DNA of 64,000 nt from Candidatus Amesbacteria bacterium GW2011_GWB1_47_19 (lineage in GTDB: Bacteria; Patescibacteriota; Microgenomatia; CAZETR01; Amesbacteraceae). Position 1 is the first letter of the stretch, and each line of letters starts with the position of its first letter. Location: the NCBI GenBank assembly GCA_001002325.1, contig LCNZ01000004.1, forward strand, positions 3,818 through 67,817, given 5' to 3'. Below the pieces are notes generated by a model. It did not search any database. It was not told where the DNA came from and saw nothing but the letters and a program-made list of their open reading frames with translations. The position numbers and the translations under genes are program-made. Positions 7,082 to 50,016 of this stretch are shown piece by piece.

Positions 7082-9601
7082 ATGCCTTCCGATCCCGAAC
7101 AACAAACCTCCCCGATTGGCACAGTCATTTCCGCGGAAATTACCACGGAAATGCAGAAAAACTTTCTGGACTATGCCATGTCGGTAATTGTCGCCCGGGC
7201 TTTACCGGATGTCCGGGACGGCCTAAAACCAGTCCACCGCCGTATTCTGTTTGCCTGTCATGATATGGGACTGCGTCCCGGTGGTAAGCACAGCAAGAGT
7301 GCCAAAATCGTCGGTGAAGTATTGGGTAAATACCACCCCCATGGCGATGTTCCTGTATACGACGCCCTGGTCCGATTAGCCCAGGATTTTTCCATGCGCT
7401 ACCCGCTGGTGGACGGCCAGGGAAACTTCGGCTCCATCGACGGGGATTCTCCCGCCGCCATGCGCTATACGGAAGCCAAACTGGCCCGGATTGCCGAGGA
7501 AATGCTGGTGGACATCGAAAAAGAAACCGTGGATACCGTGGAAAATTTTGACGGTACCCTCAAAGAGCCGGTTTTTCTGCCCGCAAAGCTCCCCAATCTC
7601 CTGCTGATGGGATCCGAGGGTATTGCCGTTGGTATGGCTACCAAAATTCCGCCTCATAATCTTTCCGAGGTCGTGGACGCGGTCTCGTACCTGGTAGATC
7701 ACCCCGAGGCCACCGTCGAAGAACTGATGCAGTTTATAAAAGGGCCTGATTTCCCCACCTATGGGGCAATTTATGATACCAAAGCCATCGCCGAAGTCTA
7801 TTCCACCGGCCGGGGCAGAATCGTCGTCCGGGGCAAAGCCGAAATTGAGGAAGGCAAATCCGGAAAAACTCAGATCATTATTTCCGAACTGCCGTATCAG
7901 GTAAACAAAGCCGAGCTGGTGGCCCGTATTGCCGATCTGGTCCATCAGAAAAAAGTGGATGGGATTTCCGATCTGCGGGATGAATCAGATCGGGACGGTA
8001 TCCGGGTAGCCATAGATCTCAAACGGGACGCCAAACCCAAGAGTATCCTCAATAACATTTACAAACACACCGCTCTTCAGACCACTTTCCCCGCCAATTT
8101 TGTCGCCCTGGTAGACGGTACCCCCCAGACCCTGGGTTTGGTCCAAATTCTCAGCGAGTATATCAAACACCGCCGTCTGGTCATCACCCGCCGGTCTGAA
8201 TATGATCTGCGCCAGGCAAAAGCCCGAGCTCACATTCTGGAAGGTTTAAAGATTGCCCTGGACCACCTGGACGCGGTCATAAAAACCATCCGGGAATCTC
8301 CCGATGCCGATGCAGCCAAATCCAGCCTCATGTCCCGGTTCGGTTTGTCCGAACTTCAGGCCACTGCCATCCTGGATATGCAGCTGCGGCGTTTGGCTGC
8401 CCTGGAACGCAAAAAAATCGAGGACGAATACAAAGCCGTTTTGGAATTGATTGACCGTCTGGAGGATCTTCTGGCTCATCCGGAAAAAATTCTGGCAGTG
8501 ATCAAAGACGAATCCGCAGCCCTCAAAGAAAAATTCGGTGACGAACGTCGTACCCGGGTTTACAAGCTGGGAATCGGCGAATTCTCCGAGGAAGACCTTA
8601 TTCCGTCGGAAGACACCGTAGTTACCGTTACCGCCACCGGCTACATCAAACGCCAGAATCCCACCGCTTTCCGCACCCAGCACCGCGGGGGTAAGGGAGT
8701 TACTGGCCAGACCGTCAAAGATGAAGACGAAATTTCCCACATCATTACAGCCAACACCCACGACGACATCCTCTTTTTTACCAATCTGGGTCGGGTATTC
8801 AAAATAAAGGCTTATGATTTGCCTGAAGGCAGCCGCCAGGCCAAAGGTCAGGCGGTGGTTAATCTCATCAACATCGGAGGCGAGGAAAAACTCCAGACAA
8901 TTTTAGCCATGGGTAAAAACGGTGCATCTAAATTCCTGCTCATGGCCACGAATAAAGGCACCATCAAGAAAAGCAAATTGTCCGACTTTGACCATATCCG
9001 GATATCCGGCATTATCGCCATCAAACTGGAGTCCGGTGATAATCTCAAATGGGTCAAGACTACCACCGGCTCCGATCAGATTTTACTGGTTTCCAGAAAC
9101 GGCAAATCCATCCGTTTCCGGGAAGAAGACGTCCGGCCTACCGCCCGGGATACCATGGGAGTCCGGGGAATAGAACTTAAAACCTCGGATTACGTTGTCG
9201 GTATGGAAATATTCCCCGGTAATAAACAGGCTCCCGCAGACCGCCGCCGGAAAACATTCGAAGACGTCCTGATAATAACTGAAAGGGGCTTGGGCAAGCG
9301 TACTTCCGTTCGCCTCTGGCCATTGCAGAAGCGCGGTGGTCAGGGCGTAAAAGCCGCCAGCCTGACAGACAAAACCGGGCTTTTGATTGCCTGTATCGGA
9401 GTTGACGAAAATGTGGACCAGATAGTGTTAACCAGTCGTTCAGCCCAGATTATCAAACTGCCTCTTAAGAACATCCCCAATCTGGGTCGCGATACCCAAG
9501 GGGTAATTCTCATGCGTTTTTCCCAGAAAGGTGATTTCGTCGCCGCCGTCACCTGCCTGGAAAAAGACACCGACGAAAAACCCGCTGAAAAATCAAAATA
9601 G
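7082..9601 (+). CDS. gyrA: DNA gyrase subunit A
   Basis: DGLKPVHRRILFACHDMGL and AAMRYTEAKL motifs. 839 aa. Confidence 0.92.
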   Translation: MPSDPEQQTSPIGTVISAEITTEMQKNFLDYAMSVIVARALPDVRDGLKPVHRRILFACHDMGLRPGGKHSKSAKIVGEVLGKYHPHGDVPVYDALVRLAQDFSMRYPLVDGQGNFGSIDGDSPAAMRYTEAKLARIAEEMLVDIEKETVDTVENFDGTLKEPVFLPAKLPNLLLMGSEGIAVGMATKIPPHNLSEVVDAVSYLVDHPEATVEELMQFIKGPDFPTYGAIYDTKAIAEVYSTGRGRIVVRGKAEIEEGKSGKTQIIISELPYQVNKAELVARIADLVHQKKVDGISDLRDESDRDGIRVAIDLKRDAKPKSILNNIYKHTALQTTFPANFVALVDGTPQTLGLVQILSEYIKHRRLVITRRSEYDLRQAKARAHILEGLKIALDHLDAVIKTIRESPDADAAKSSLMSRFGLSELQATAILDMQLRRLAALERKKIEDEYKAVLELIDRLEDLLAHPEKILAVIKDESAALKEKFGDERRTRVYKLGIGEFSEEDLIPSEDTVVTVTATGYIKRQNPTAFRTQHRGGKGVTGQTVKDEDEISHIITANTHDDILFFTNLGRVFKIKAYDLPEGSRQAKGQAVVNLINIGGEEKLQTILAMGKNGASKFLLMATNKGTIKKSKLSDFDHIRISGIIAIKLESGDNLKWVKTTTGSDQILLVSRNGKSIRFREEDVRPTARDTMGVRGIELKTSDYVVGMEIFPGNKQAPADRRRKTFEDVLIITERGLGKRTSVRLWPLQKRGGQGVKAASLTDKTGLLIACIGVDENVDQIVLTSRSAQIIKLPLKNIPNLGRDTQGVILMRFSQKGDFVAAVTCLEKDTDEKPAEKSK

Positions 9602-18440: not shown

Positions 18441-19094
18441 ATGACACCGACAAAAAGCCGTATTACCGCCATATCAATACCACAGGAAACACAAAAACTC
18501 CTTAAACAACTCCAGATCAAGTCCGGCAAAAGCCGGTCATTATTGTTGAGAGAAATGATAAATTATTATGTCTCGTCCGCGCGGCGGGAATCCCGTATCG
18601 CCAAAGCTGACTCACCGGTGACTTTTATTAACGATTCTGATGCCAATCTAATTCTGAAACTTTATCATCGTCTTTTATCTGAAAACCGGCCCAAACCCGT
18701 GGTTGTTGTAGGTATCGCAATTATTAATAAAAAAAATCGGGTACTTATCGGATTGCGTAAATCTACCGACCAATTAATCCGGGATTTGCATTGGACATTT
18801 CCCTCAGGTAAATTTTCCTCACTTAATTTCGAATCGGAACTTGTCAGAACTATCAGCCGTGAAACGGGAATTGACACCAATCCCGGTAATCTTATCCATG
18901 CCCGGCTCATACCTGATTCGCCAAAGAAAAAGGTCCGTATTATCGGTCTTTACTATCATTGCCGGGTTGCTTCCGGACGTCAGAAGCCCGGCGGAGATTT
19001 CAAAGAGCTCAAATGGGTGGATGCCGTAACTGTCAACCGCTTTTTCACCACAAGCGTCGCCGACGAAGTTATGAATTTCCTGGGTAATTTGTAA
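18441..19094 (+). CDS. Ribbon-helix-helix DNA-binding domain fused to a degenerate Nudix-like domain
   Basis: N-term ITAISIPQETQKLLKQL...SRSLLLREMINYY (CopG/Arc RHH). C-term GKFSSLNFESELVRTISRETGI resembles a Nudix box with the catalytic Glu positions partly lost. Confidence 0.55.
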   Translation: MTPTKSRITAISIPQETQKLLKQLQIKSGKSRSLLLREMINYYVSSARRESRIAKADSPVTFINDSDANLILKLYHRLLSENRPKPVVVVGIAIINKKNRVLIGLRKSTDQLIRDLHWTFPSGKFSSLNFESELVRTISRETGIDTNPGNLIHARLIPDSPKKKVRIIGLYYHCRVASGRQKPGGDFKELKWVDAVTVNRFFTTSVADEVMNFLGNL

Positions 19095-29313: not shown

Positions 29314-29398
29314 GCCGGGGTGCTGAAATGGTAAACAGGCTGGTCTCAAAAACCAGTGGGCCTAAAAGCCTATGTGGGTTCGACTCCCTCCCCCGGCA
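29314..29398 (+). tRNA. tRNA-Leu, anticodon CAA
   Basis: Acceptor stem GCCGGGG/CCCCGGC. Anticodon stem CTGGT/ACCAG with loop CTCAAAA. Long variable arm (type II). T-loop TTCGACT. Discriminator A. CCA not encoded. Confidence 0.8.
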
Positions 29399-37066: not shown

Positions 37067-37390
37067 TTAAATCTTTTCTTTCACCCTGTCAAACATTTCC
37101 TTCAGGCTTTTCGGCCTCGCTGCATCCTCGGCTTCTTCCTGTTTTCTTTTTAATAATTGCTTTTGTTTCTTGGAAATATACATCTTACCCTGGGTTTTGT
37201 TCAAAGTCTGCTGGAACCGCTCCACCCTGCCCATAGTATCCACAAACCTCATTTCTCCGGTAAAGAAAGGGTGACATTTTGCGCAAATCTCGACATGGAT
37301 TTCCGGCTTAGTAGATCCGACGGTAAAAGCATTCCCGCAGGCACACTTGACCACCGCCTGATAATATTTTGGGTGTATAGCTAACTTCAT
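37067..37390 (-). CDS. rpmE: Ribosomal protein L31 with about 35-aa basic C-terminal extension
   Basis: [45 protein letters not shown]. Confidence 0.8.
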
Positions 37391-37428
37391 GGGTCGATTT
37401 TATCTTAACTTTGGATTAAAATCCATCC

Positions 37429-37743
37429 ATGGCTCCTTTGGCTGAAGTTACCGTTCGAAAATGGAGTGGTTTTGACTACTATCCCCCTTCGAAAATCAGA
37501 CTTATATGGCAGGATAAATCCCAAGACCCTAAAATTACTGCAGAAAGATGTGACAACAATCACAAAATAGACATGGGGTTTAACGCTTATAAAATCTCAG
37601 ACGGGGGTTTGTACCCGATAGCAATAGTCATGTGCGCGTCTTGTTACAATAGACAACTTACCATCGATAAACTTCATTACTTGGTTAAAAAAGGTTTTCT
37701 GATGATAATCCACCATGAAAAGGGATATCCGCTACCCTTCTGA
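37429..37743 (+). CDS. Hypothetical protein (104 aa), possible Zn-binding (CxxxH...CxxC)
   Basis: ORF only. Confidence 0.3.
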   Translation: MAPLAEVTVRKWSGFDYYPPSKIRLIWQDKSQDPKITAERCDNNHKIDMGFNAYKISDGGLYPIAIVMCASCYNRQLTIDKLHYLVKKGFLMIIHHEKGYPLPF

Positions 37744-37745
37744 AA

Positions 37746-38918
37746 TTATTTCGCTTCTTCCAGCGTCACCATTATTTTCTTGGTCTCTTCATTTCTCCAC
37801 AACTCAACCTCCACTTTATCGCCGATTTTATATCCGGCAATTGCCTTGGCCAAACTATTCTCGTCACTGCCGTCAATCTTTTTACCCCCGATTTTGGTAA
37901 TTATATCCTCCACGGCTATTCCTGCTTCTTCGGCTGGCGAATCCGCAATCACTTCCTGGACGTAAGCTCCCGCCGGCACCTCATACTGCAGGGCCGTCTT
38001 CATATCCAGAATCCTGTACCGTACTCCCAGATAAGGCCGGTTAAACTGACCGGTTTTATTGAAATTATCTATCGCTTCTTTTACTATATTTATGGGTATT
38101 GCAAATCCTATATTCTGCCCCTGCTGAGATACGGCGGTATTTACGCCGATCACCTGTCCCGCCGAATCCAAAAGCGGTCCACCGGAATTACCGGGATTTA
38201 TAGCCGCATCGGTTTGGATAACATTATCCAGTTTTTCCACTGCGCCTTCGTATGGGCTTCCGGCAGTAATTCCTCTTCCCAGACCTGAAACTACCCCGGT
38301 GGTTACCGTATGCCTGAACTCTCCCAATGCCGTGCCTATGGCAATTACAAACTGACCCACTTTCAGTCTGGATGAATCACCCATTTCCACCGTTTGCAGG
38401 TCCTTTGCATCAATTTTCAATATTGCCAAATCATTAGTCGGATCCCGATAGATTTTCTGGACTTCATATGTTTTATCATCCTTAGTTACCACCCGGTAAG
38501 CGGCTTCTGTATCGTCCACTACATGTTTGTTGGTAACTATCAAACCGTCCTTACCGATGACAAATCCTGACCCGATGTCCTGCTCAATCTTCCGCTCCTG
38601 TGTCTGATTACCGGGTTGCTGCCGGAACATTCCGAACGGATCAGAAAAAAAGTCAAAATTGGGTGTTCTGAGTACTTGTGTTTTTTTAATTCCGACCGTA
38701 ACCACCGACGGACTGACTTTTTCCGCCACATCAATTACAACCGATTCTTCTTTGAGTATCTTTTGCGTCTCCGTTGCAGTACCGCCCGAAAACTCTCCCC
38801 TCGATGGCAGCCATTTATCCAATACCTTATACCCGAATAGCCGGTCCGAAACGGCCCCGCCGGTCACTGCCCCGGCCAGCACTAGCGCTCCCGCAATAAA
38901 CAAAAATAATCTGCGCAT
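37746..38918 (-). CDS. htrA: HtrA/DegP-family serine protease with PDZ domain
   Basis: GSGFVIGKDGLIVTNKHVV (His), GNSGGPLLD (Ser), C-terminal PDZ. Confidence 0.85.
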   Translation of the reverse strand: MRRLFLFIAGALVLAGAVTGGAVSDRLFGYKVLDKWLPSRGEFSGGTATETQKILKEESVVIDVAEKVSPSVVTVGIKKTQVLRTPNFDFFSDPFGMFRQQPGNQTQERKIEQDIGSGFVIGKDGLIVTNKHVVDDTEAAYRVVTKDDKTYEVQKIYRDPTNDLAILKIDAKDLQTVEMGDSSRLKVGQFVIAIGTALGEFRHTVTTGVVSGLGRGITAGSPYEGAVEKLDNVIQTDAAINPGNSGGPLLDSAGQVIGVNTAVSQQGQNIGFAIPINIVKEAIDNFNKTGQFNRPYLGVRYRILDMKTALQYEVPAGAYVQEVIADSPAEEAGIAVEDIITKIGGKKIDGSDENSLAKAIAGYKIGDKVEVELWRNEETKKIMVTLEEAK

Positions 38919-41292: not shown

Positions 41293-42267
41293 TCAAACTC
41301 CGACTTTAAACTCTACCACGTCTCCGTCTCGCATCACATAATCCCGGCCTTCCGTCCGGACTTTCCCCGCCTCCCGGGCTTTAGTCCAACCACCCAGACT
41401 GACAAAATCTTCCCAATATATAACATCAGCTTTTATAAAATGCTTTTCAAAATCGGTGTGTATTACCCCCGCTGCCTGCGGCGCTTTGGTCCCTTTTTTA
41501 ATAGTCCAGGCTCTCGCCTCTTTTTCACCCGCAGTCAGGAATGTCGATAAACCCAATAGCTCAAATGCTCTGACTATCAACTTTTCCAACCCGCTTTTTT
41601 CCACTCCCAGCTGGAGTAAATACTCCGTTGCCTCCTCATCCGGCAGGCCGGCTAGTTCACTCTCCGTCTTAGCACAAATAATTATCACCTGATTCCGGTC
41701 CAGCCCCATCTCCTGTGCGTGGTTCTTCTCCATTTCCGACCCGTCTTTCAGATCTTTTTCATCCGCATTCAGCACCACTAGCATCGGCTTTTTAGACAAA
41801 AGTTGGAGTTCCTCGGAAACTTGTGCCCTTTTTTGACCCCGTCTTTCAATGGATTCCAGATCTGCCAGTTCCAGTTCGGTCTTAATAATCTCAAAATCAT
41901 TTCTCGGGTCCACTGACCCTTCCCTGATGATGTTTTCATCAGTAAAAGCCCTGATCACATGGGCTACCGCATCCACTTCCCGGATCTGGGCCAGGAATTT
42001 ATTTCCCAAACCTGCACCAGTTGAAGCTCCCTTAACCAACCCGGCGATATCAACAAATTTGACTGTAGCAGGAATAATTTTATCCGTCTTTACCACATCC
42101 GCCAATAACGCCAGACGGCTGTCACGTACTGGTACCACCCCTATATTTGGCTCAATCGTAGCAAACGGATAATTAGCCACCAGCGCCGCCTGCTTTTTCA
42201 ACAGCGCATTAAACAAGGTGCTTTTCCCGACATTAGGCAACCCGATAATCCCGATTTCTAACCCCAT
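41293..42267 (-). CDS. ychF: Ribosome-binding ATPase YchF (Obg-like)
   Basis: GIIGLPNVGKSTLFNALL...NYPFATIEPN...DIAGLVKGAS. Confidence 0.85.
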   Translation of the reverse strand: MGLEIGIIGLPNVGKSTLFNALLKKQAALVANYPFATIEPNIGVVPVRDSRLALLADVVKTDKIIPATVKFVDIAGLVKGASTGAGLGNKFLAQIREVDAVAHVIRAFTDENIIREGSVDPRNDFEIIKTELELADLESIERRGQKRAQVSEELQLLSKKPMLVVLNADEKDLKDGSEMEKNHAQEMGLDRNQVIIICAKTESELAGLPDEEATEYLLQLGVEKSGLEKLIVRAFELLGLSTFLTAGEKEARAWTIKKGTKAPQAAGVIHTDFEKHFIKADVIYWEDFVSLGGWTKAREAGKVRTEGRDYVMRDGDVVEFKVGV

Positions 42268-42271
42268 CCTC

Positions 42272-42475
42272 CTATTTTAATGCATCCTTGGCATTTTTGA
42301 TCCTTTTATTTAACAAAATACTAATTAGCCCAAGGGTAAAACTTTCCGGTTTCTCTTTTATTCCCCTAGTTAATTCGTCAAAATTAAACCACTTTATTTT
42401 TTCCACCTCTTCTTTTTGCAAAATAAAATCTCCGAAATATTTACTCTGAGAATATATCGTTGTGCTAGAATGCAA
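42272..42475 (-). pseudogene. Possible 3' fragment of an Idi/Nudix-type gene (67 aa)
   Basis: EEVEKIKWFNFDEL...PESFTLG resembles the C-terminus of type-1 IPP isomerase/Nudix. AT-rich. Sits at the edge of the AT-rich block. Confidence 0.3.
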
Positions 42476-42484
42476 GGTTAGTAA

Positions 42485-43402
42485 GTGGAAAAAGAGATTG
42501 TTCTTAATATTAGCAAAGATCTAAATGGTAATTCTCAACCCGGTGAAATCATTCTTAGGGGGAGAAAGATAGCTACTACACCCTTCACGCGCAGCACGAT
42601 AATTTTCGCTACAAGTGAAGCTGGTAAACCGGTTGTGATTAAGTTCCCCACTAAGAAGAGTAAGGCGGAAAGAGAATGGACTGGATTTTGTAAGGCTTAC
42701 ACAGCAGATGTGCCGACACCTATGCCCATTGCCCTGGTAACAAGCAAGGGAGGTCGCGTTGGAGTAATGCAAGAAGAGGTTGGCGGCCAGAGTCTATATA
42801 AATGTCCGGGGGGACAAGCCAGAATACGATTCGGTGAAATTGTGAAAGATATGCACCTTAAAGTGCCAACTGCGGGAATTGAATGGCAGGAAAAAGGGAA
42901 AGCAGACTATACATATTATGACAAACGCATTCAATGTTGGTCAGAAGGACAGGTTGAATTGTTATCAGCCGGCAGCACAACTCAAGCCATGCTTGGTCTA
43001 CTTTCTCCCACTATGAACAGATCTTGCAGATCTGCACCGCCAATGTTTAATCATAATGACCTATATGACAGTCAAGCGATTGTTGGAGATCAAAAAATTT
43101 ATCTTATCGACTTTGAGGAGTGGGTTGAGGAAAATCCTCTAAACGATATCGCCTATTATCTTTTTCATACTATCAGGTCAAATATGCCAGAAGTTAACTT
43201 CGGTTCATTTCTTTCCGGATATTTAGGAAATGAAGTTTTATCAGAACCAGAAAAACAAACCTTAATGTTTTACCTTTTATTTATATCTGCAAGAGCTTTA
43301 AACTATTTCCATGCATCTAAAAGCAAGTATTTCGAAATAGCGGAAAAATCCCACCGTGCTGTGACAAACTATATTGATAATGAGAACGTCTGGAAAAGCT
43401 AA
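42485..43402 (+). CDS. Phosphotransferase (APH/choline-kinase-like, protein-kinase fold) family protein
   Basis: HNDLYDSQAIV (Brenner-like HxDxxxxN variant) and YLIDFEEW (DFE/DFG-like). GTG start. Confidence 0.5.
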   Translation: MEKEIVLNISKDLNGNSQPGEIILRGRKIATTPFTRSTIIFATSEAGKPVVIKFPTKKSKAEREWTGFCKAYTADVPTPMPIALVTSKGGRVGVMQEEVGGQSLYKCPGGQARIRFGEIVKDMHLKVPTAGIEWQEKGKADYTYYDKRIQCWSEGQVELLSAGSTTQAMLGLLSPTMNRSCRSAPPMFNHNDLYDSQAIVGDQKIYLIDFEEWVEENPLNDIAYYLFHTIRSNMPEVNFGSFLSGYLGNEVLSEPEKQTLMFYLLFISARALNYFHASKSKYFEIAEKSHRAVTNYIDNENVWKS

Positions 43403-43411
43403 CAAATTTTT

Positions 43412-44059
43412 CTATTTGAGAGAATTTACAAAACCCAAGTGTGAATAATCATTTAAATACCATAGTTTCCAAACTTTAGCTTCTTCACGATATATCAATA
43501 GGGATATCCCTGTGGGCTCGATTACCAGAGATCTAAAAAATCGTCTATAGTGATCAGCCTGTGAGTTTTCTCCAAACAGGCAAGTTGATATAAACAACCT
43601 GATAAATCCCTCGTGAGAAAAAATCAGAAGATTTTTTTGAAGATAGTTGTTTATCAAGTAGTCCCTGAACTCTACTGAACGTTTTACCATCTCGGTAAAA
43701 GACTCTTCTTCCAAATCCCATTTCCAGTCCCAATTATTTCCGTTCTGCTGGGCCTCTTTTAAGTATTGCCTGGAAAGGTCTTCGTTACGCGACAGGCCAT
43801 AAACTTTTGAGGATTGGTAGCGTTCTTCTATACCATTAACCATTTCAACTTGCTTATTTAAATTTTCTGCGGCAATCCCGGCTGTCTCAACGGTTCTTAT
43901 CCAATTACTAGAAATAATTTTGTCTACTACTTTAAACCTTGGTAGCTTTCCCAACACTTCGGCTTGCTTCTTCCCTTTTTCACTTAAATGAGTCTCAGGA
44001 GATTGCCACCTTTCCCCTACATTTTCCCCCTCAGCATGTCTGACTAAAAACAGTTTCAT
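43412..44059 (-). CDS. Histidine phosphatase superfamily (phosphoglycerate-mutase-like) protein
   Basis: MKLFLVRHAEGE (RHG/RHA catalytic-His motif). Start chosen at MKLFLV. Confidence 0.65.
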   Translation of the reverse strand: MKLFLVRHAEGENVGERWQSPETHLSEKGKKQAEVLGKLPRFKVVDKIISSNWIRTVETAGIAAENLNKQVEMVNGIEERYQSSKVYGLSRNEDLSRQYLKEAQQNGNNWDWKWDLEEESFTEMVKRSVEFRDYLINNYLQKNLLIFSHEGFIRLFISTCLFGENSQADHYRRFFRSLVIEPTGISLLIYREEAKVWKLWYLNDYSHLGFVNSLK

Positions 44060-44078
44060 CGTTTTGATTGTGTACAGG

Positions 44079-44849
44079 TTACTGTTTCTTGCTACCGATT
44101 GCAATCAACCCAACTATGCTTTCCGTTCTCCCATCTAGGTCCAAAATTTTATTGAACCCTTCATCTATAAACCCTCCAATTGAACAGACTCCTAAACCCA
44201 ATGCCGTGCCAATCAGATAAACGTTTTGGGCAATATGGCCATATTCTGTCATGGTGTGACGGTAACCTCTGTCTTTGTACTTCACTTCAGTCCGGTCAAA
44301 TACTGCTGTTGGTATAATAAAAAATCCTGATTCTTTCAGCCATTCTTGATTTACCTGCTTCAGAGCCTGACTTTTCATATTTTCGGAAGGAATTAACTCC
44401 AAGGAATGAGTTTTTAAATGGTAGTGATAGACTCCATTTTCCAGATTTTGAACGTTAAATATAAATAAATAAATTTCCAAGGGATATCTGGCTCCCGCTG
44501 AGGGGTACATTCGACTTTCAGATTCGGTTTTAACCAAAATTCGTTTCAATCCAACCGAATAGTAGAGAAGGTTACTTAGCTGTTTTAAGCTAACCGGCTT
44601 ACAGGAAAAATTTCTAATGGAGATTCTTGATGAAAGAGCTTGAAATAGGTCGAATCTCTTACTTGAAGGCAACGGAAGTATTATTTGGTCGAACCTGGGA
44701 TAAGCTTTGTAGTAAACCGTTTTCCACTCCTGAGGCCAAGTATTGGACGGAGTTTGCGATTCAAAGTGATTAATCATAGTATAGTTATTGAACTTCCTCG
44801 CAGGGGATAACTTTGTCAACATTTTATAGGCTTTTGAAAGCTTGGTCAT
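44079..44849 (-). CDS. SagB-type dehydrogenase (nitroreductase superfamily; TOMM-class FMN dehydrogenase)
   Basis: SSRISIRNF, RMYPSAGARYPLEIYLF, GVYHYHLKTHSLELI and KYKDRGYRHTMTEYGHIAQNVYLIGTALGLGVCSIGGF match the SagB/ThcOx-type dehydrogenase signature. Confidence 0.75.
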   Translation of the reverse strand: MTKLSKAYKMLTKLSPARKFNNYTMINHFESQTPSNTWPQEWKTVYYKAYPRFDQIILPLPSSKRFDLFQALSSRISIRNFSCKPVSLKQLSNLLYYSVGLKRILVKTESESRMYPSAGARYPLEIYLFIFNVQNLENGVYHYHLKTHSLELIPSENMKSQALKQVNQEWLKESGFFIIPTAVFDRTEVKYKDRGYRHTMTEYGHIAQNVYLIGTALGLGVCSIGGFIDEGFNKILDLDGRTESIVGLIAIGSKKQ

Positions 44850-44862
44850 AAGTTTTACAAAC

Positions 44863-45456
44863 TCATAAAAATGGGTGGGGGAAATTGTTTAATTTTCTTC
44901 TTTCGTTCTTATTAAATCCAATTTTTTGAGACACTTGGTAAAGCCTTTCGCCTCCAAGCAGTTTTCTAGCTTCATTAAGATAAAACGGCTGAGCTTTAGG
45001 AATTATTACTTTAACCACAAAATAATTCATTTTTCTAAAAACTTGGATAGTTATGTCCTTATATAGGATATCAAGTCCAAGTTTTTTAAAAATGTTAATT
45101 AAGATTTCTAACTGTTCCCCTGAAGACCGGCTACTAATACTCTTTGGAATATTAGGCGACGTCTTTTGGGAATTCAGCAAAAAGTTTAGTTTTCCAATTG
45201 CACTTCTTGAATACCACAAGAACCCACGCGTTTTAATGTCGGATCTTTTCATCAGCGTTTCGCGTGTTACTTTCCTATAATGGTTTTCGTATTCAGTTCT
45301 CAGCCAAGTTCGGGTAGTGAAGGTTTCTTCTATCGAACCTACCAATGCTGCAATGGGATCCAGGCTGCATTTCATCCCGACAGATACTGCTTTACCTATT
45401 CCCGTCCGGTTAATTACAACTGTTAAATATGTGGGAACGGGAATATCTGTGGTCAT
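44863..45456 (-). pseudogene. YcaO-domain protein, C-terminal two-thirds only (N-terminal ATP-binding part missing)
   Basis: DIPVPTYLTVVINRTG...VGMKCSLDPIAALVGSIEE resembles the YcaO central DxPVV...GxGxHxDPxxAxxxAxxE segment. DITIQVF...VVKVIIP resembles the YcaO beta-hairpin. Ends NFPHPFL (Pro-rich YcaO-type C-terminus). The ATG overlaps the stop of the kinase fragment. Confidence 0.45.
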
Positions 45457-45469
45457 CTCATAACAGTAA

Positions 45470-45888
45470 TCGGGGTTCTCAGCTGATGTGATGCCATAGC
45501 AATAAATTCCGTTTTCAGTTTATCTGCGATTTTAATTTCCGTCATGTCCTGCTCATTGCCTACAAACCCCACCAATTGACCATCTCCGACAATCGGAGCA
45601 ATTTTTTACCGCAGAGTAATATTCCTGGCCGTTTTTGCGCCGGTTCAGAATTTCTCCCGTAAATACCTTTTTCTCTGTTTTTATTGCCCGCCATAAATCA
45701 TCGTAATATCCCCTGTCCATTAAACCACCCCACAACCGGGGGGTTTTACCCAGCATTTCCTCCAGGCTGTACCCGGTAATTTTCTGTGCCGCCTCATTAG
45801 CATACAAAATCCGCCCGTCCGCATCGGTTATTATCATGTGCTCGGCCGAATTGCTGACCGCCAGCTTGAATTTTTCCAGCTCGTCCAT
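45470..45888 (-). pseudogene. PAS-domain sensor histidine kinase, frameshifted and truncated after the H-box
   Basis: The PAS ORF (ITDADGRILYANEAAQKITGYS...NGQEYY) runs into an A6 homopolymer. The -1 frame continues IAPIVGDGQLVGFVGNEQDMTEIKIADKLKTEFIAMASHQLRTPITVMR (HisKA H-box) and then stops. No HATPase domain follows. Confidence 0.6.
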
Positions 45889-45957: not shown

Positions 45958-46227
45958 ATGACCAAACGATATCAGGTCCGGGTGAAAAAACGCGACGGAA
46001 CCACCGAAGTCTTTCATCCCGAAAAAATTATCCGCGTTTTACTAGCTGCCGGGTTATCCGAGTCGGACGCTCTCCAAACCGCCCAAACTATCTCTCAATA
46101 TCTGCATTCCCTGCACAAAAAAACCGTCGCCTCACTGCTCATCCGTGACCGGGTTCAACTGGAACTGGACGCCCGTTTCCCCTATACCGCCGGCCTCTAC
46201 CGCTGGTATCAGAAAACCAAAGTCTGA
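45958..46227 (+). CDS. Stand-alone ATP-cone domain protein (89 aa)
   Basis: MTKRYQVRVKKRDGTTEVFHPEKIIRVLLAAGLSE...RDRVQLEL matches the ATP-cone (NrdR/RNR N-terminal) pattern. No zinc ribbon. Confidence 0.5.
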   Translation: MTKRYQVRVKKRDGTTEVFHPEKIIRVLLAAGLSESDALQTAQTISQYLHSLHKKTVASLLIRDRVQLELDARFPYTAGLYRWYQKTKV

Positions 46228-46235
46228 CCTATTTT

Positions 46236-46748
46236 TTACTTAATATACAGATATATTCCGTCCTTTTTTGTTTCAGGTATCCAATCGGAAAACTTGAAAT
46301 CCTTGGATACCACTCGGGATCCGGGTTTCAGCTCACGCAGTAATTTCTTCTCCAGATCCCGCATAATACTAGGAAACCCGTAAACCGTCACTATATCGAA
46401 TCCCCCGAAATCCGGTTTCCACATGTTCCCCCAAACCACCTTCGCAACTCTGGACAAACCCATCTTCCGGATTTTATATCGGGAATATAAAACTAAAAAC
46501 GGATTTATTTCGATTCCCAGCGCCTGACAGCCTCTTTTTCCCATCTCGACTACCAGCCGGCCGTCACCCGAACCCAAGTCCAATCCCCTCTCACCTGTTT
46601 TCGGTTTCGTCAGATCTATCATTGTTTCTACACTTTTTCTGTCTGTCGGAACATACGGCGCCCCCCTGATAACCGCCACCACCATGAACAGCACATAACA
46701 AAACGCTACCCCGGATATTAAAAGTCCCAACACCGCAAATACCATCAT
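46236..46748 (-). CDS. Class I SAM-dependent methyltransferase with N-terminal TM helix
   Basis: GLDLGSGDGRLVVEMGKRGCQALGIEINP (motif I and post-I). ATG ATG start at about 46748 preferred over the track TTG. Confidence 0.65.
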   Translation of the reverse strand: MMVFAVLGLLISGVAFCYVLFMVVAVIRGAPYVPTDRKSVETMIDLTKPKTGERGLDLGSGDGRLVVEMGKRGCQALGIEINPFLVLYSRYKIRKMGLSRVAKVVWGNMWKPDFGGFDIVTVYGFPSIMRDLEKKLLRELKPGSRVVSKDFKFSDWIPETKKDGIYLYIK

Positions 46749-46949
46749 GTCTTCAATTATATCCGTATTCAATCAAAAAAAGAGCGGAGTATTTGCCCGT
46801 GCTCCGCCCTCTTTCTGCTTATGGAAAATATTGGAAATAGTTCGCTTTTTACCGCCAAACTCCAATCCTCCTTAACCCCCTAAAATTACCACCCCGGTCC
46901 GAAAAATGCTGTATCTTATTTCACAAAAAAAATGTAAGATCTGCCACAT

Positions 46950-47588
46950 ATGCCATCCTCCTCCCAGAATCTGCTGCTCAAATACTTTCAGCAACACCCG
47001 TCCCTCTCATACCGTAAAAAAGAAAACGTATTGCGCAGCGAAGATACACCCCAGGGAATATTTTTTATCCTCAACGGGTATGTCAAAATGAACGTGACGT
47101 ACCCCAGCGGCCGAGAATTGACAGTCAACATCTTCAAACCCTCAACCTACTTCCCCATGATGTGGGCTCTAGGAGACATCCCCAACAACTACGATTTTCA
47201 AGCTATGACCCCAGTACTCATTCATCGCTCCCCAAAAAACGAATTCCTTAATTTCTTGGGTCATAATCCCAACTTGCTCGCAGATCTTACCCGCCGGGCA
47301 TATATCGGGCTCGACGGTCTGATTACGCACATTAGCCGCCTGTTGACTGAAGATGCCTACCACCGGATCATAGCCGCCCTCGTGATGTGTTCAAAACGAT
47401 TCGGCCGGAAATATTCCCGGAACAGGATCTTTATTGATTTACCCCTGACCCACCAGGATTTGGCGGATTTAGCCGGAGTCACCAGGGAAACCGCCAGTCT
47501 GACTTTAGAAAAGCTGAAACAGCAAAAGTTAATCAACCAGGAATCCCGTCATTACATCATCCTCAAGCCCGGCTTACTTTTCCCATAA
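46950..47588 (+). CDS. Crp/Fnr-family transcriptional regulator
   Basis: cNMP-binding beta-roll plus C-terminal HTH LTHQDLADLAGVTRETASLTLEKLKQQKLI. Confidence 0.75.
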   Translation: MPSSSQNLLLKYFQQHPSLSYRKKENVLRSEDTPQGIFFILNGYVKMNVTYPSGRELTVNIFKPSTYFPMMWALGDIPNNYDFQAMTPVLIHRSPKNEFLNFLGHNPNLLADLTRRAYIGLDGLITHISRLLTEDAYHRIIAALVMCSKRFGRKYSRNRIFIDLPLTHQDLADLAGVTRETASLTLEKLKQQKLINQESRHYIILKPGLLFP

Positions 47589-47590
47589 CC

Positions 47591-48589
47591 TCACAAACCT
47601 TCCCCGCCCAATATTACCCGGACATGCACTTCCGTTAATTCCGGGTCTGCTTCCGGAGTTGCCGTCTGATATTCCTCCAGAACTATTTCGTGGATTTCCC
47701 GGGCTTGAGATTCGTACCCCGGCAAATACTTAATCAGTGTTTTACCTGAGTTTTTTGTTTGGTAATTTGCAGTCTCGGTAAGTATGTATCCGGATTGTAT
47801 GAGCCTCTCTCCTACCCCCGCAGCCAAACCCTGGACATTAGTGCCGTTCAACACCATTACCCCGACTTCTGCCCGTTCTATATCCGCACTAGGGGTAATA
47901 GTAGGTGTTGGTATCACTTCCGTCGGTACCGGAGCAGTCGTGGCTCTTGCCGGTACGGGGTAGGAATTGACTCTCAGCTTCACGGTCGCTACTGCAGCCA
48001 CTACCCCCAAAACCACCAACAGCGCGAATATCCCTCCGACTAGCCACAATTTACCCCCAACCCCAGTATCGCCTTCGTCTGTTTCCTCCAGATTCCAATG
48101 CGGCTCAATCTTTATTTTAACCAGCCTCTCCGCCGCATCCCAATTCCACAACCCCGGACCTCCGGTAAATAAACACCGGTCAGGTACCACTGCTTCAACT
48201 GTTCCGCCCTTAAATGTTCTTACCATATATCTGTACAAATCTTTGTTAACCGCCGCTGCGATCCGCTTACCGTTTATAGATATTACTTTCTTTACCAGTA
48301 AATCAGGACTGATCGGCAATTCAGACCAGAATCCTTCCGCTTCGGCATCATTTTGTATAGTTTTTTGAAAACAGACTGAATCGTCCATCACTATCAGTAT
48401 TTTTCCTCTCCTCAATTCAAATTTCTTTTTAACTGCCTTCCACCATAAAATCAGGTTCGACCTGTCTTTGATCTCCAGATTGCTTATCACTCCCGCGGGA
48501 TAATCCACTTCATATGCTTTTTTATCTGCCAACGAAAAAATCATCAACCCGCTGGATTTGATGACCAGTACCAACCACTTTCTCCCCAT
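47591..48589 (-). CDS. Pilus-assembly-like membrane protein: PilM-like N-domain, TM, LytR_C-like C-domain
   Basis: N-term LVLVIKSSGLMIFSL (actin-fold PilM/FtsA-like start). Central TM. C-term VMVLNGTNVQGLAAGVGERLIQSGY (LytR_C-like). Last gene of the pilus operon. Confidence 0.45.
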   Translation of the reverse strand: MGRKWLVLVIKSSGLMIFSLADKKAYEVDYPAGVISNLEIKDRSNLILWWKAVKKKFELRRGKILIVMDDSVCFQKTIQNDAEAEGFWSELPISPDLLVKKVISINGKRIAAAVNKDLYRYMVRTFKGGTVEAVVPDRCLFTGGPGLWNWDAAERLVKIKIEPHWNLEETDEGDTGVGGKLWLVGGIFALLVVLGVVAAVATVKLRVNSYPVPARATTAPVPTEVIPTPTITPSADIERAEVGVMVLNGTNVQGLAAGVGERLIQSGYILTETANYQTKNSGKTLIKYLPGYESQAREIHEIVLEEYQTATPEADPELTEVHVRVILGGEGL

Positions 48590-48629
48590 TACTATTTATT
48601 ATAAAAGAAATTCCAAGCTTTTTCCCAAA

Positions 48630-49121
48630 CTATCTGGAAGCGTAGACCGTTGTTCCCTCCGCGCCGCAAGCTCTCACCGTCACAATCCCGTTGGTATCCA
48701 CAACCACACTATACCCGCTCATATTGGATGCTACCGTACCATCCGGATCCAGCGGCAACTCTTTTAAATACTTGGTCAAATTCCTGGCGTCGGTTGCGAG
48801 CATCAAATCCACACAGGCAGTGGCCGCGACTGCACACCCCCCTGTAGCTATGGCACATCCAGCTACCGCCGTCCCCAATTGGACTTCGGTCCCTGCTGCG
48901 GGCATTTTAGTCGGGTAATTACCCTTGTTATCGATTATCGATTGGTGAATAGCCGACAAAATCGTGTCCACATCACTCGTCCTCCGGGCGTTCTTGGTAT
49001 CTTTCAGTCTTTGTGCCGGATTAAGGGCCACGAACACCGCCACCGCCAACAGCGAAATTATTGTCACCACCAACAAAAGCTCTATCAGAGTAAAACCTCT
49101 CCTCTTATTCCCAAGCATCAC
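48630..49121 (-). CDS. Type IV major pilin (prepilin with class III signal)
   Basis: MMLGNKRRG/FTLIELLLVVTIISLLAVAV cleavage/methylation motif with Glu+5. C-terminal Cys pair. Confidence 0.85.
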   Translation of the reverse strand: MMLGNKRRGFTLIELLLVVTIISLLAVAVFVALNPAQRLKDTKNARRTSDVDTILSAIHQSIIDNKGNYPTKMPAAGTEVQLGTAVAGCAIATGGCAVAATACVDLMLATDARNLTKYLKELPLDPDGTVASNMSGYSVVVDTNGIVTVRACGAEGTTVYASR

Positions 49122-49158
49122 ATCCAGAATAGCTTTGCTCTCAACTGTTTGTCAAGTA

Positions 49159-49533
49159 CTATATCTCCTGCCAACTGGATAGCGTGATTGTCTGCCCCCT
49201 GGTAAACACCACCCGCACCTTGCGACCGAAAGCCGTCCCCGTCTCGGATACAGTTAAATCCCAATTTACCGGCCCCGGCAGGCTATAACTTACCCCACAG
49301 GTCCCCTCCGGCAGGCTGATCGTCGTCTGGTTGTAGGCAGCATCGTCATGGATTTCTTGCAGGACATCTTCCGCACACCCGTCAACCAGATACCCGTCCC
49401 CACCTCCCAATTCCACCGTCAGCGCCGCCTGCCCTTCACCGATAGCCAGCAGAGTGACTGTCGTCGTTACCGCCATTACCACCGCTGCGATAATCAATAC
49501 CGCCGATAATGCCGCAAATCCTTTATGTTTCAT
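49159..49533 (-). CDS. Minor pilin/pseudopilin-like protein (non-canonical, Ser at +5)
   Basis: MKHKGFAALSAVLIIAAVV prepilin-like N-terminus lacking Glu+5. Two Cys. Confidence 0.55.
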   Translation of the reverse strand: MKHKGFAALSAVLIIAAVVMAVTTTVTLLAIGEGQAALTVELGGGDGYLVDGCAEDVLQEIHDDAAYNQTTISLPEGTCGVSYSLPGPVNWDLTVSETGTAFGRKVRVVFTRGQTITLSSWQEI

Positions 49534-50015
49534 ATACCCCTCAATTCCGTCGTCGTCTGTAATGTCATGGTTTCCTGGAATTCCTGTCGTCCGGCTGCCG
49601 AAAAATTTGCACTCAGTGTCAGCACCACCTGCACATTCTTGGTTTTTCCGTCACCCGAAGAATAATCAGTGAAAATTAAGTCCGTTACTGTAGTGTCATC
49701 TGAATTCAACGATATTGCACCCGCACCCTGGTTGATTCGCACCCTACCGGTATTCAAATCAATCGTGGTGTCAGGGCCGGAATAATTGGTCAGTACCAGG
49801 GAATTTGCTGCCACATTGGTAATATTTTTAGCATTTCGGATTTCATATTTAATTCGCTCCAGAATATTTCTACCCGTGGCTGCCACTTCCTGATCTGTCA
49901 TACTCCTGCTTCCCCCGCCCACCACTTCCCAAGTCACGGGTAGCATCGCACTCATCACTATTCCGATAATGGCCACATACAAAATCAGTTCCACCAAGGT
50001 AAAACCTTTCTTCAT
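49530..50015 (-). CDS. Minor pilin (prepilin-type N-terminus)
   Basis: MKKG/FTLVELILYVAIIGIVMSA. Start taken at MKKGF (track ORF starts further upstream). Confidence 0.7.
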   Translation of the reverse strand: MKKGFTLVELILYVAIIGIVMSAMLPVTWEVVGGGSRSMTDQEVAATGRNILERIKYEIRNAKNITNVAANSLVLTNYSGPDTTIDLNTGRVRINQGAGAISLNSDDTTVTDLIFTDYSSGDGKTKNVQVVLTLSANFSAAGRQEFQETMTLQTTTELRGI

Positions 50016-50016
50016 A

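Follow-up and report, generated by a model that had tools for sequence, protein, structure and literature searches.

The window analysed here is a stretch of 64,000 nucleotides from a Candidatus Amesbacteria genome, and between ychF and a gene for an ATP-cone protein it holds an AT-rich block. The features of the block and its flanks are the following.

41293..42267, minus strand: ychF, 324 aa, Pfam MMR_HSR1 and YchF-GTPase_C; native left anchor
42272..42475, minus strand: 3' fragment of a Nudix hydrolase gene, a 67-aa ORF with 30% G+C and GC3 0.324
42476..42484, no strand: putative internal deletion joint, with the 5' end of the Nudix fragment ~10 nt from the divergent APH start codon
42485..43402, plus strand: APH/CotS-fold phosphotransferase, 305 aa, intact ORF; PF01636, 29.7 bits
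43412..44104, minus strand: histidine phosphatase, branch 1, 215-230 aa depending on start choice, intact ORF; PF00300, E=2.7e-25
44079..44849, minus strand: SagB-family FMN dehydrogenase, 256 aa, intact ORF; TIGR03605, 158.5 bits (cut-off 78.4)
44863..45456, minus strand: C-terminal 197 aa of a SagD-family YcaO cyclodehydratase; Pfam YcaO positions 182-324 of 325, TIGR03604 positions 181-376 of 377
45453..45888, minus strand: PAS-HisKA sensor kinase pseudogene; PAS Pfam matches, H-box SHQLRTP
45454..45471, no strand: putative kinase::YcaO recombination joint, where the two homologies overlap by ~13-18 nt (TTACT... microhomology)
45958..46227, plus strand: ATP-cone protein, PF03477; native right flank

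Composition and gene content of the block

The block, from 42270 to 45460, has a G+C content of 38.1%, against 47.8% across the whole window, and the lowest-GC stretch of its length in the 64 kb starts at 42251 (sliding 3190-nt windows, SD 2.6%). The tetranucleotide distance peaks at 34.8 inside the block, compared with ~18 elsewhere. A maximum-likelihood fit of two change points to the region 36-52 kb places the left edge at 42270 (support 42190-42300) and the right edge at 45539 (support 45199-45729), with a gain of 54.7 in lnL for both edges together. Codon usage tells the same story, since GC3 of the block ORFs, at 0.32-0.40, lies under that of every one of 56 background genes (0.531 +/- 0.039, minimum 0.436). 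The sequence-only reading had described an AT-rich block here and had named a uniform G+C and tetranucleotide profile as what would speak against it; the sliding G+C, GC3, tetranucleotide and change-point profiles all show a step. Its figures need some correction. The flanks, which it had put at 50-57% G+C, measure 46-52%, and its samples of 27-33% within the block, though rightly low, are local extremes, since 300-nt windows there span 31-47% and the APH gene comes close to the native G+C over its 5' half.

The genes named by that reading agree with the profile searches throughout: an APH-fold kinase (PF01636), a histidine phosphatase (His_Phos_1), a nitroreductase of the SagB type (TIGR03605) and a YcaO protein of which the C-terminal half alone is present. 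The YcaO fragment scores 126.9 bits against TIGR03604, below the cut-off of 219, and aligns by tblastn to residues 248-447 of an intact 447-aa homologue on a metagenomic contig, L097. The missing N-terminal ~247 residues take in the YcaO domain model up to position ~180, and no trace of that half occurs anywhere in the window, which rules out a split YcaO with its other half elsewhere in it. SagB lies 13 nt downstream of the fragment. What an azole-peptide (LAP/TOMM-type) cluster would need in addition to this adjacency is absent: besides a full-length YcaO, there is no precursor peptide with a Cys/Ser/Thr-rich core (the intergenic gaps are 10-13 nt, and the 75-aa candidate of L097 has no match in the window), no E1-like or other YcaO partner was found among the block ORFs by profile search, and the 540-aa Asn-synthase-like gene of L097 has no counterpart in the window. 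The PADLOC models of anti-phage defence matched none of the block proteins, and a PDB sequence search with the APH kinase gave no match.

The ORF at the left edge stops 4 nt short of the ychF ATG. It had been taken for a possible Nudix/Idi 3' gene fragment, and its HMMER homologues bear out Nudix: in an exhaustive search the non-repetitive matches were NUDIX-domain proteins, aligned at their residues ~110-165, with weaker support from NCBIfam Nudix (E=0.0067, positions 123-154 of 170) and YfcD (E=1.2). About 110 codons at the start of the gene are gone, and the Nudix box with them; the aligned part lies downstream of the site of the box, and Pfam reports no NUDIX domain in the 67 aa. To judge from the sequence and the ORF map, there is no room for a promoter ahead of the divergent APH gene, whose homologue on a second metagenomic contig, L098, has an upstream spacer of 176 nt and a different neighbour. 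We therefore treat positions 42476-42484 as a likely internal deletion joint.

The kinase and its joint with YcaO

The right edge of the block coincides with the point where the PAS-HisKA kinase is cut, as the sequence-only reading had proposed and as the reading frames and the limits of the two homologies confirm. Homology to kinases is certain through the P of SHQLRTP (45471), and alignments to the H-boxes of WalK and PhoR run as far as 45456; homology to the L097 YcaO begins at 45468-45469 (blastn from 45469, tblastn from 45468). The kinase stop TGA (45453-45455) does overlap the ATG of the YcaO fragment (45454-45456) in a 4-nt ATGA, both codons sitting in YcaO-derived sequence. It falls 10 residues past the phospho-acceptor His, rather than 12 after the H-box as first counted.

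The kinase lacks the last part of HisKA and all of HATPase_c, and a +1 frameshift at an A6 tract (45602-45607) divides what is left into a 111-aa PAS ORF and a 40-aa HisKA piece, so that PAS, full HisKA and HATPase_c do not stand together in one frame. Judged by these lesions, the sensor kinase is a dead gene. No 3' remainder of it was found in the window by tblastn with the C-terminal halves of WalK and PhoR; the sole HATPase_c matched there belongs to an intact paralogue (56102-57430, 31% identical). Nor did a shallow word-index search for an intact orthologue yield more than 12 candidates, all PAS-only or cut and on contigs of ≤1.4 kb (P0004, P0005).

The native-like GC3 of the PAS part, 0.579, is the sole indication that the kinase is a resident gene. 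Its last 49 codons have a GC3 of 0.35, a small sample, from which the kinase could itself be a mosaic. The frameshift, which the earlier reading did not mention, lies close to this change; as a second composition boundary, at ~45604, it would rest on those 49 codons and fall within the wide change-point support of 45199-45729.

Homologous modules and the variable locus upstream of ychF

The order YcaO, SagB, histidine phosphatase and, on the opposite strand, APH kinase recurs on L097, on L098 and in part on a third metagenomic contig, L087, all with 35-38% G+C. Judged by this shared order, the block is one conserved module of YcaO, SagB dehydrogenase, histidine phosphatase and APH-fold kinase. 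Amino-acid identities between the window and the other contigs are 55-68%, with SagB at 65% to L097 and 58% to L098 and the phosphatase at 60% and 56%, respectively. The APH kinase is lower, at 41-47%: 41% to the L098 kinase, which is placed and oriented alike, and 47% to the part of its L097 counterpart, the 3' end, that the contig covers. It is a conserved accessory of the module, as is the phosphatase; both are kept in L098 and, as far as the contig reaches, in L097.

L097 carries an intact cluster, consisting of a small protein, an Asn-synthase/PP-loop-like protein (540 aa), a Cys/Ser-rich precursor candidate of 75 aa just upstream of YcaO, the YcaO, SagB and histidine phosphatase genes, and the divergent APH-fold kinase. 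Its full-length YcaO passes TIGR03604 (269 bits against 219) and the SagB genes pass the TIGR03605 cut-off. A SagC/McbB (E1-like) partner was not recognised even in this cluster, and no viral contig carrying the module was found in the YcaO alignment and SagB searches. By relative-rate comparison the window copies, the YcaO fragment included, have not evolved faster; they are as far from L098 as the intact copies on L097 are. Since the remaining ORFs are moreover all open, the truncation must be recent relative to the divergence from L097.

The other side of the comparison is the host lineage. In seven relatives (L090-L096; YchF 67-77% identical) homology with the window begins exactly at the ychF start codon. 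The downstream order ychF-S6-SSB-S18-S41-HtrA-L31-RF1 is kept, and nothing upstream is conserved: all seven differ completely there, with 32-40% G+C in the last 1-2 kb before ychF, and none has the block genes at this locus. The DNA directly upstream of ychF is thus a variable locus, where each of the relatives examined has genes of its own, for the most part AT-rich. In one of them, L095, an element with a large serine recombinase and Prim-Pol abuts ychF, and no att-like motif is conserved upstream of ychF across the 7 genomes. An apparent 1.1-kb strain-level indel between L090 and L091 in this region turned out to be a scaffold gap of 100 Ns and is not evidence. A YchF scan of genome contigs added matches that, among those listed, were all at ≤55% identity, with upstream regions that were not informative. 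A kinase orthologue is likewise absent from the seven relatives, including at this position in the nearest one (L090/L091), where an ATP-cone orthologue (44% identical) adjoins Dus. Among the sequences searched there was no intact allele of the kinase, and no intact cluster in any Amesbacteria genome.

The edges of the block carry no marks of mobility, and the window contains no mobility gene. Direct and inverted repeats and target-site duplications amount to short chance matches at both edges, so that the direct repeats that the sequence-only reading had suggested looking for at the junctions were not found at a significant level; no tRNA lies at either edge (the sole tRNA in the window is at 29314), and tblastn found no remnant of an integrase or recombinase.

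Origin of the block

There is good support for the block as foreign DNA: its composition, the restriction of its close relatives to contigs of 35-38% G+C and its absence from the same locus in relatives all point this way. More specifically, our analysis suggests, with a probability of roughly 70%, that it is what remains, in broken form, of an azole-peptide (YcaO/SagB) cluster gained by horizontal transfer, lodged at a variable spot by ychF and joined to a dead kinase, and that the remnant can no longer make a peptide. In a population of Candidatus Amesbacteria (Microgenomates, CPR) in the Rifle aquifer, the locus upstream of ychF would have taken in DNA from a donor of ~36-38% G+C. This DNA would have carried a linear azol(in)e peptide cluster, intact in the form seen on L097, in which, going by the protein families, an ATP-dependent YcaO would turn Cys, Ser and Thr of a precursor into azolines and SagB would oxidise these to azoles. 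Only the distal half of such a cluster survives in the window. An illegitimate-recombination or deletion joint, with microhomology of a few bases, would then have fused kinase codon ~142 to the co-oriented YcaO codon 248, at the cost of the catalytic domain of the kinase, the ATP-binding half of YcaO, and the precursor and upstream genes of the cluster. A second joint would have cost the Nudix gene beside the APH gene its 5' two-thirds, and the kinase would have gained its frameshift besides.

How does this compare with the proposal of the sequence-only reading, that foreign DNA landed in, and destroyed, a sensor gene? Foreign origin and the coincidence with the truncation stand. A simple insertion, however, would have left the rest of HisKA and the HATPase_c domain on the far side of the insert; none is present in the window, and simple insertion as stated is not supported. 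We regard the joint rather as a scar of deletion or illegitimate recombination, left between sequences that either were neighbours already or recombined at the same time, because there is no kinase remainder, YcaO is cut in mid-gene, the Nudix gene is truncated, the kinase is frameshifted and the edges are unmarked.

A version closer to that proposal is a single step, in which a linear foreign fragment that already started within YcaO took the place of the 3' part of a kinase gene still functional at the time, together with the DNA up to ychF, by illegitimate or homology-facilitated illegitimate recombination, its landing killing the kinase. The coincidence of the right G+C boundary with the truncation point, the short microhomology, and the scant amelioration and unaccelerated divergence of the block are consistent with this, and a type IV pilus operon 3 kb away could perhaps have served DNA uptake. 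But the far end of the block does not look resident, its truncated Nudix fragment at 30% G+C implying at least one further deletion joint; moreover, the frameshift in the kinase is unrelated to such an event, and the missing kinase remainder counts against it too. While nothing tells a single step apart from a later deletion directly, erosion by deletion after acquisition fits better than landing in the kinase, since several truncations favour later erosion, and we consider the single step unlikely.

Could the remnant instead be partly functional, with SagB, the phosphatase, the APH kinase and perhaps the 197-aa YcaO protein selected for a role other than azole formation? All four ORFs are open, they have diverged from L098 no more than the intact L097 copies have, and the YcaO fragment has gained an ATG in its 4-nt overlap with the upstream stop. 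Recent truncation explains open frames equally well, however, and with half of the YcaO domain gone, no precursor, and no promoter room before APH, such a role for the set is improbable, though the three intact ORFs may still serve another use. That the genes are native, vertically inherited and AT-rich for functional reasons would draw on the AT-richness of ychF-upstream DNA in all relatives, which could be a local property; it is very hard to reconcile with a content that differs in every relative and never includes these genes, with homologous modules known only from uniformly AT-rich contigs, and with GC3 values outside the range of all 56 background genes. Finally, the source genome is metagenome-assembled, and in one assembly (L006) a scaffold gap filled with Ns lies 70-100 nt away from the joint, but an artefact of assembly or binning, as the sequence-only reading had wished to see excluded, is next to impossible. 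Independent assemblies, from at least 7 samples and by 4 pipelines (ENA, NCBI, Logan, JGI), all show an identical joint, with 99.98-100% identity along 8-10 kb, contigs as long as 152 kb and the 111-aa and 40-aa kinase pieces called alike; several GenBank MAGs have it too, and no repeat lies there that could mislead an assembler.

LAP clusters with YcaO next to a nitroreductase have been described in 93 CPR genomes, 31 of them Microgenomates (Sharrar et al. 2020, mBio, PMC7298704). The block resembles these in the SagD-type YcaO directly beside a SagB-type nitroreductase in a Microgenomates-group genome, and its intact L097 homologue does so in the Cys/Ser-rich small ORF just upstream of YcaO; it differs in its truncated YcaO, in having neither precursor nor peptidase, and in the histidine phosphatase and APH-fold kinase as conserved accessories. 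The genes also match the models (TIGR03604 SagD, TIGR03605 SagB) of the streptolysin S SagBCD and microcin B17 McbBCD systems, from which they differ in the lack of a recognised SagC/McbB partner, and in that the window copy is non-functional. In those systems cyclodehydration is followed by FMN-dependent oxidation. Like genomic islands, and like islands eroding in reduced genomes, the block shows a sharp step in composition and codon usage, absence from sisters at a conserved anchor with homologues elsewhere, and truncated edge genes, whereas the window copy has no tRNA target, direct repeats or integrase, a serine-recombinase element being found at that position in one relative only.

We see here genes gained and decaying in the ordinary way rather than a system of a new kind. 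The locus gives a base-by-base record of how a secondary-metabolite cluster would be gained and then lost in a CPR bacterium whose genome is very small, and of how the erosion of a cluster can take an adjoining regulatory gene along; as a practical caution, a YcaO or nitroreductase annotation in these Amesbacteria MAGs is no sign of a working azole-peptide pathway. More useful by-products are the intact L097 cluster, whose phosphatase and kinase accessories are unusual, and the variability that recurs at the 5' end of ychF, though neither alters current understanding. One might go further and take the ychF 5' end as a lineage-wide landing site for serine-recombinase elements with AT-rich, eroding cargo, and the four-gene module as an undescribed azole-peptide subclass with a phosphorylation and a dephosphorylation step, the window being a fossil of both, a combination that we hold to be doubtful. 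Class V lanthipeptide clusters, another RiPP type, encode an APH-fold kinase of the LxmK type. By this parallel in fold, the module's kinase, whose partner is a histidine phosphatase rather than a HopA1-like lyase, may phosphorylate the peptide.

Composition and genes of the AT-rich block

Our analysis confirms that the stretch 42270-45460 is AT-rich far beyond chance. Its G+C content is 38.1% against 47.8% for the window, the lowest-G+C of all 3190-nt windows (SD 2.6%) starts at 42251, and the tetranucleotide distance from the window average doubles there. A two-change-point likelihood fit over 36-52 kb places the boundaries at 42270 (support 42190-42300) and 45539 (support 45199-45729) with a gain in lnL of 54.7, and GC3 is 0.32-0.40 in the five block ORFs against 0.531 +/- 0.039 in 56 background genes (minimum 0.436). 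The sequence-only reading was right about the AT-richness itself, although the samples of 27-33% G+C it quoted mark local minima, and the values it gave for the flanks were slightly too high. Mild low-GC spots also occur at 18441-19094, whose ORF supplies the background GC3 minimum, and at 37350-37950, where a 104-aa hypothetical gene lies between L31 and HtrA in a stretch of 38-42% G+C; relatives carry another small ORF at that position. Exact matches to the window proteins come from GW2011_GWB1_47_19, RIFOXYB1_FULL_47_13 and GCA_003488165.1, of the Candidatus Amesbacteria population in the Rifle aquifer.

Genes of the block and its edges
41293-42267, minus: ychF, left neighbour, with the Nudix fragment immediately upstream
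42272-42475, minus: Nudix 3' fragment, 67-aa ORF
42485-43402, plus (divergent): intact APH/CotS-fold kinase, starting ten bases beyond the Nudix fragment
43412-44104, minus: intact histidine phosphatase, branch 1
44079-44849, minus: intact SagB-family dehydrogenase (TIGR03605, 158 bits against a cut-off of 78)
44863-45456, minus: YcaO fragment, 197-aa ORF, matching the 377-position SagD/YcaO model at positions 181-376 only
45888 down to 45453, minus: PAS-HisKA kinase fragment with PAS domain and H-box SHQLRTP

Family matches bear out the phosphotransferase-fold kinase, histidine phosphatase, SagB dehydrogenase and YcaO fragment that had been claimed, and the suspected Nudix/Idi 3' fragment at the left edge is substantiated as well. 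In an exhaustive HMMER search, all non-repetitive homologues of the 67-aa ORF are NUDIX-domain proteins aligned at residues about 110-165, so that the ORF represents the last (3') third of a Nudix gene. At 30% G+C it is richer in AT than any other part of the block, and its junction with the start of the APH gene spans about 10 nt. Two proteins from other metagenomes, P0152 and P0155 (67 and 53 aa), are 46-47% identical to it and may be comparable Nudix C-terminal pieces, present as separate ORFs or contig-end fragments.

The kinase fragment and its joint to YcaO

The kinase gene does stop at the right edge of the block; its frame ends 10 residues past the H-box histidine, not 12 as first read, and a +1 frameshift in an A6 run (45602-45607) had gone unnoticed. 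Independent gene calls in other assemblies give identical kinase pieces of 111 aa and 40 aa. GC3 of the 49 kinase codons past the frameshift (45457-45603), a small sample, is 0.35 against 0.58 in the preceding PAS part; going by these 49 codons, the site of the frameshift may mark another mosaic boundary instead of a simple indel.

Kinase homology is certain through the proline codon of SHQLRTP (45471), and homology to the intact YcaO of the metagenomic contig L097 begins, by nucleotide and protein, at 45468-45469, in register (window Y-C-Y-E-M-T-T-D against Y-S/T-F-D-L/I-T-T-D in L097 and a second contig, L098). Since the next five kinase-frame codons (I-T-V-M-R) are also compatible with the usual H-box continuation, the stretch common to both homologies measures about 13-18 nt and contains a TTACT that is identical in L097. 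The crossover falls within 45454-45471, and the stop codon of the kinase and the fragment's ATG are most simply YcaO sequence in two reading frames. A repeat search found none at the joint, which has the appearance of illegitimate recombination, possibly microhomology-aided, rather than of site-specific insertion.

The far end of the block is itself a second truncated gene, the Nudix fragment, and no flanking repeats, tRNA or recombinase were found at the block edges; the region therefore has two or more deletion-type joints as well as a frameshift. We read it as the erosion of an acquired island, in which one deletion would have run from mid-cluster into the neighbouring co-oriented kinase gene. 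Set against these joints, a one-step replacement by a fragment truncated beforehand seems to us the less likely course. The account first proposed, that foreign DNA landed in a two-component sensor gene and destroyed it, is upheld in part. Simple insertion predicts the 3' part of the kinase past the other block end, and tblastn of WalK/PhoR HisKA-HATPase halves against the window recovers just the truncated H-box and, at 56102-57430, an intact paralogue of 31% identity; direct repeats, sought at the junctions, were not found. Composition and truncation uphold foreign DNA ending at a dead kinase, but the joint, a two-sided truncation scar within a hypervariable locus, does not show that the kinase was destroyed by the landing.

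An assembly chimera is ruled out for practical purposes, because the identical joint, without a repeat, recurs in independent assemblies: contigs from 38 collection blocks carry the YcaO fragment exactly (the 23 with the longest contigs were examined), and six loci assembled from different samples (ENA, NCBI, Logan and JGI) match the window at 99.98-100% identity across 8-10 kb spanning the joint, on contigs of up to 152 kb. One independent assembly, L006, shows a scaffold gap of 10 Ns between scrambled flanks at 7724-7767 (window ~45525-45558), inside the kinase fragment and 70-100 nt from the joint; this is probably a local assembly failure, but could instead reflect strain heterogeneity at that spot.

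The azole-peptide module and its metagenomic relatives

L097 and L098 came from JGI metagenomes scanned with a degenerate pattern, the query being the YcaO fragment aligned with its one database relative. L097 (37.7% G+C) carries an intact cluster.

Genes of the L097 cluster
89-aa ORF
540-aa Asn-synthase/PP-loop-like protein
8954-9181: 75-aa ORF located 67 nt upstream of the full-length YcaO, with a good ribosome-binding site (GGGGGTG); Cys/Ser-rich C-terminus, ending CDDPVGDCAVSCSDCISDSAASCGTCEDGRSPR
Full-length YcaO, 447 aa, passing the SagD cut-off (269 against 219 bits)
SagB and histidine phosphatase, then, on the other strand, the kinase (3' end)

No family match was found for the 75-aa ORF, whose terminus makes it a plausible azole-peptide precursor candidate. 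L098 (36% G+C) has YcaO-SagB-phosphatase-kinase in the order and orientation of the window, and a third contig, L087 (35% G+C), has YcaO-SagB. The block is therefore a single conserved module from a linear azol(in)e peptide (LAP/TOMM-type) cluster. The L097 and L098 proteins are identical to those of the window at 68 and 55% for the YcaO part, 65 and 58% for SagB, 60 and 56% for the phosphatase, and 41-47% for the kinase, and the composition of the block equals that of the genomes housing its relatives. Published work (PMC7298704) reports YcaO-nitroreductase clusters from another 93 CPR genomes, including 31 Microgenomates, so the kind of system is already known, and the window system is a decayed member of these CPR LAP clusters. 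Its YcaO begins at residue 248 of the 447 in L097, and the whole 64 kb holds no trace of the YcaO N-terminal half, the candidate precursor or the two upstream L097 genes; the window cluster cannot work as a peptide maturase. The remaining block ORFs are all open, and with L098 as outgroup the window copies have diverged no more than the intact L097 copies (identity 54.8 against 55.6% for the YcaO part, 58.0 against 55.7% for SagB, 56.4 against 50.9% for the phosphatase), which points either to a truncation that is recent compared with the L097 divergence or to continuing constraint on the genes.

Two features have some interest: the phosphatase and kinase, which are conserved accessories in the intact module, and the hotspot adjacent to ychF. 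Upstream of the YcaO cluster, L097 1-6600 holds a run of nucleotide-metabolism-like genes: Pfam matches identify a nucleoside 2-deoxyribosyltransferase, a HAD hydrolase and a second histidine phosphatase, and translations read as thymidylate-synthase-like, QueC/PP-loop-like, dCTP-deaminase-like, P-loop kinase, ITPase/HAM1-like and PLP decarboxylase. The run resembles a nucleotide/DNA-modification or nucleoside-type metabolite pathway, raising the question of whether the phosphatase and kinase could belong to it instead of to the peptide cluster.

Gene turnover upstream of ychF

Seven loci of relatives (L090-L096; YchF 67-77% identical), named Amesbacteria among them, all keep the order ychF-S6-SSB-S18-S41 protease-HtrA-L31-RF1, and from ychF to the next conserved marker none has a gene in common with the window. 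Similarity of the aligned ychF upstream regions starts exactly at the start codon, and the last 1-2 kb before ychF in the relatives are also AT-rich (32-40%). At one locus (L095 1-10029; YchF 70% identical) an element of 31-43% G+C adjoins ychF. It carries Prim-Pol/PriCT, an FtsK_gamma protein, numerous unknown ORFs and a large serine recombinase (532 aa), whose gene shares 29 nt with the start of ychF. The region 5' of ychF thus behaves as a recurrent gene-turnover site in this group, which fits a foreign origin of the block and hints at a possible route by which such DNA arrives.

The nearest relative (L090/L091) has MgsA, LytR_C, Dus, ATP-cone, about 5.7 kb of unrelated genes and ychF. Its ATP-cone gene lies beside Dus, which marks the ATP-cone flank of the window as native, and it has no positional orthologue of the kinase fragment. 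Dus and ATP-cone are directly adjacent there; in the window about 11 kb (46236-57430) lie between them, so the whole Dus-to-ychF interval is variable, beyond the AT-rich block. The genes of this 11-kb stretch are all native in composition.

Genes between Dus and ATP-cone in the window
56102-57430: intact PAS-HisKA-HATPase kinase
54899-56077: three receiver-only response regulators
53217-54902 (PilB), 52133-53215 (PilC), 48630-50162 (pilins): type IV pilus operon
LytR_C protein, Crp-family regulator and methyltransferase

Among the response regulators, two receiver-domain ORFs, 55300-55701 and 55652-56077, have 50 nt in common as listed; the downstream one probably has its true start at an internal codon.
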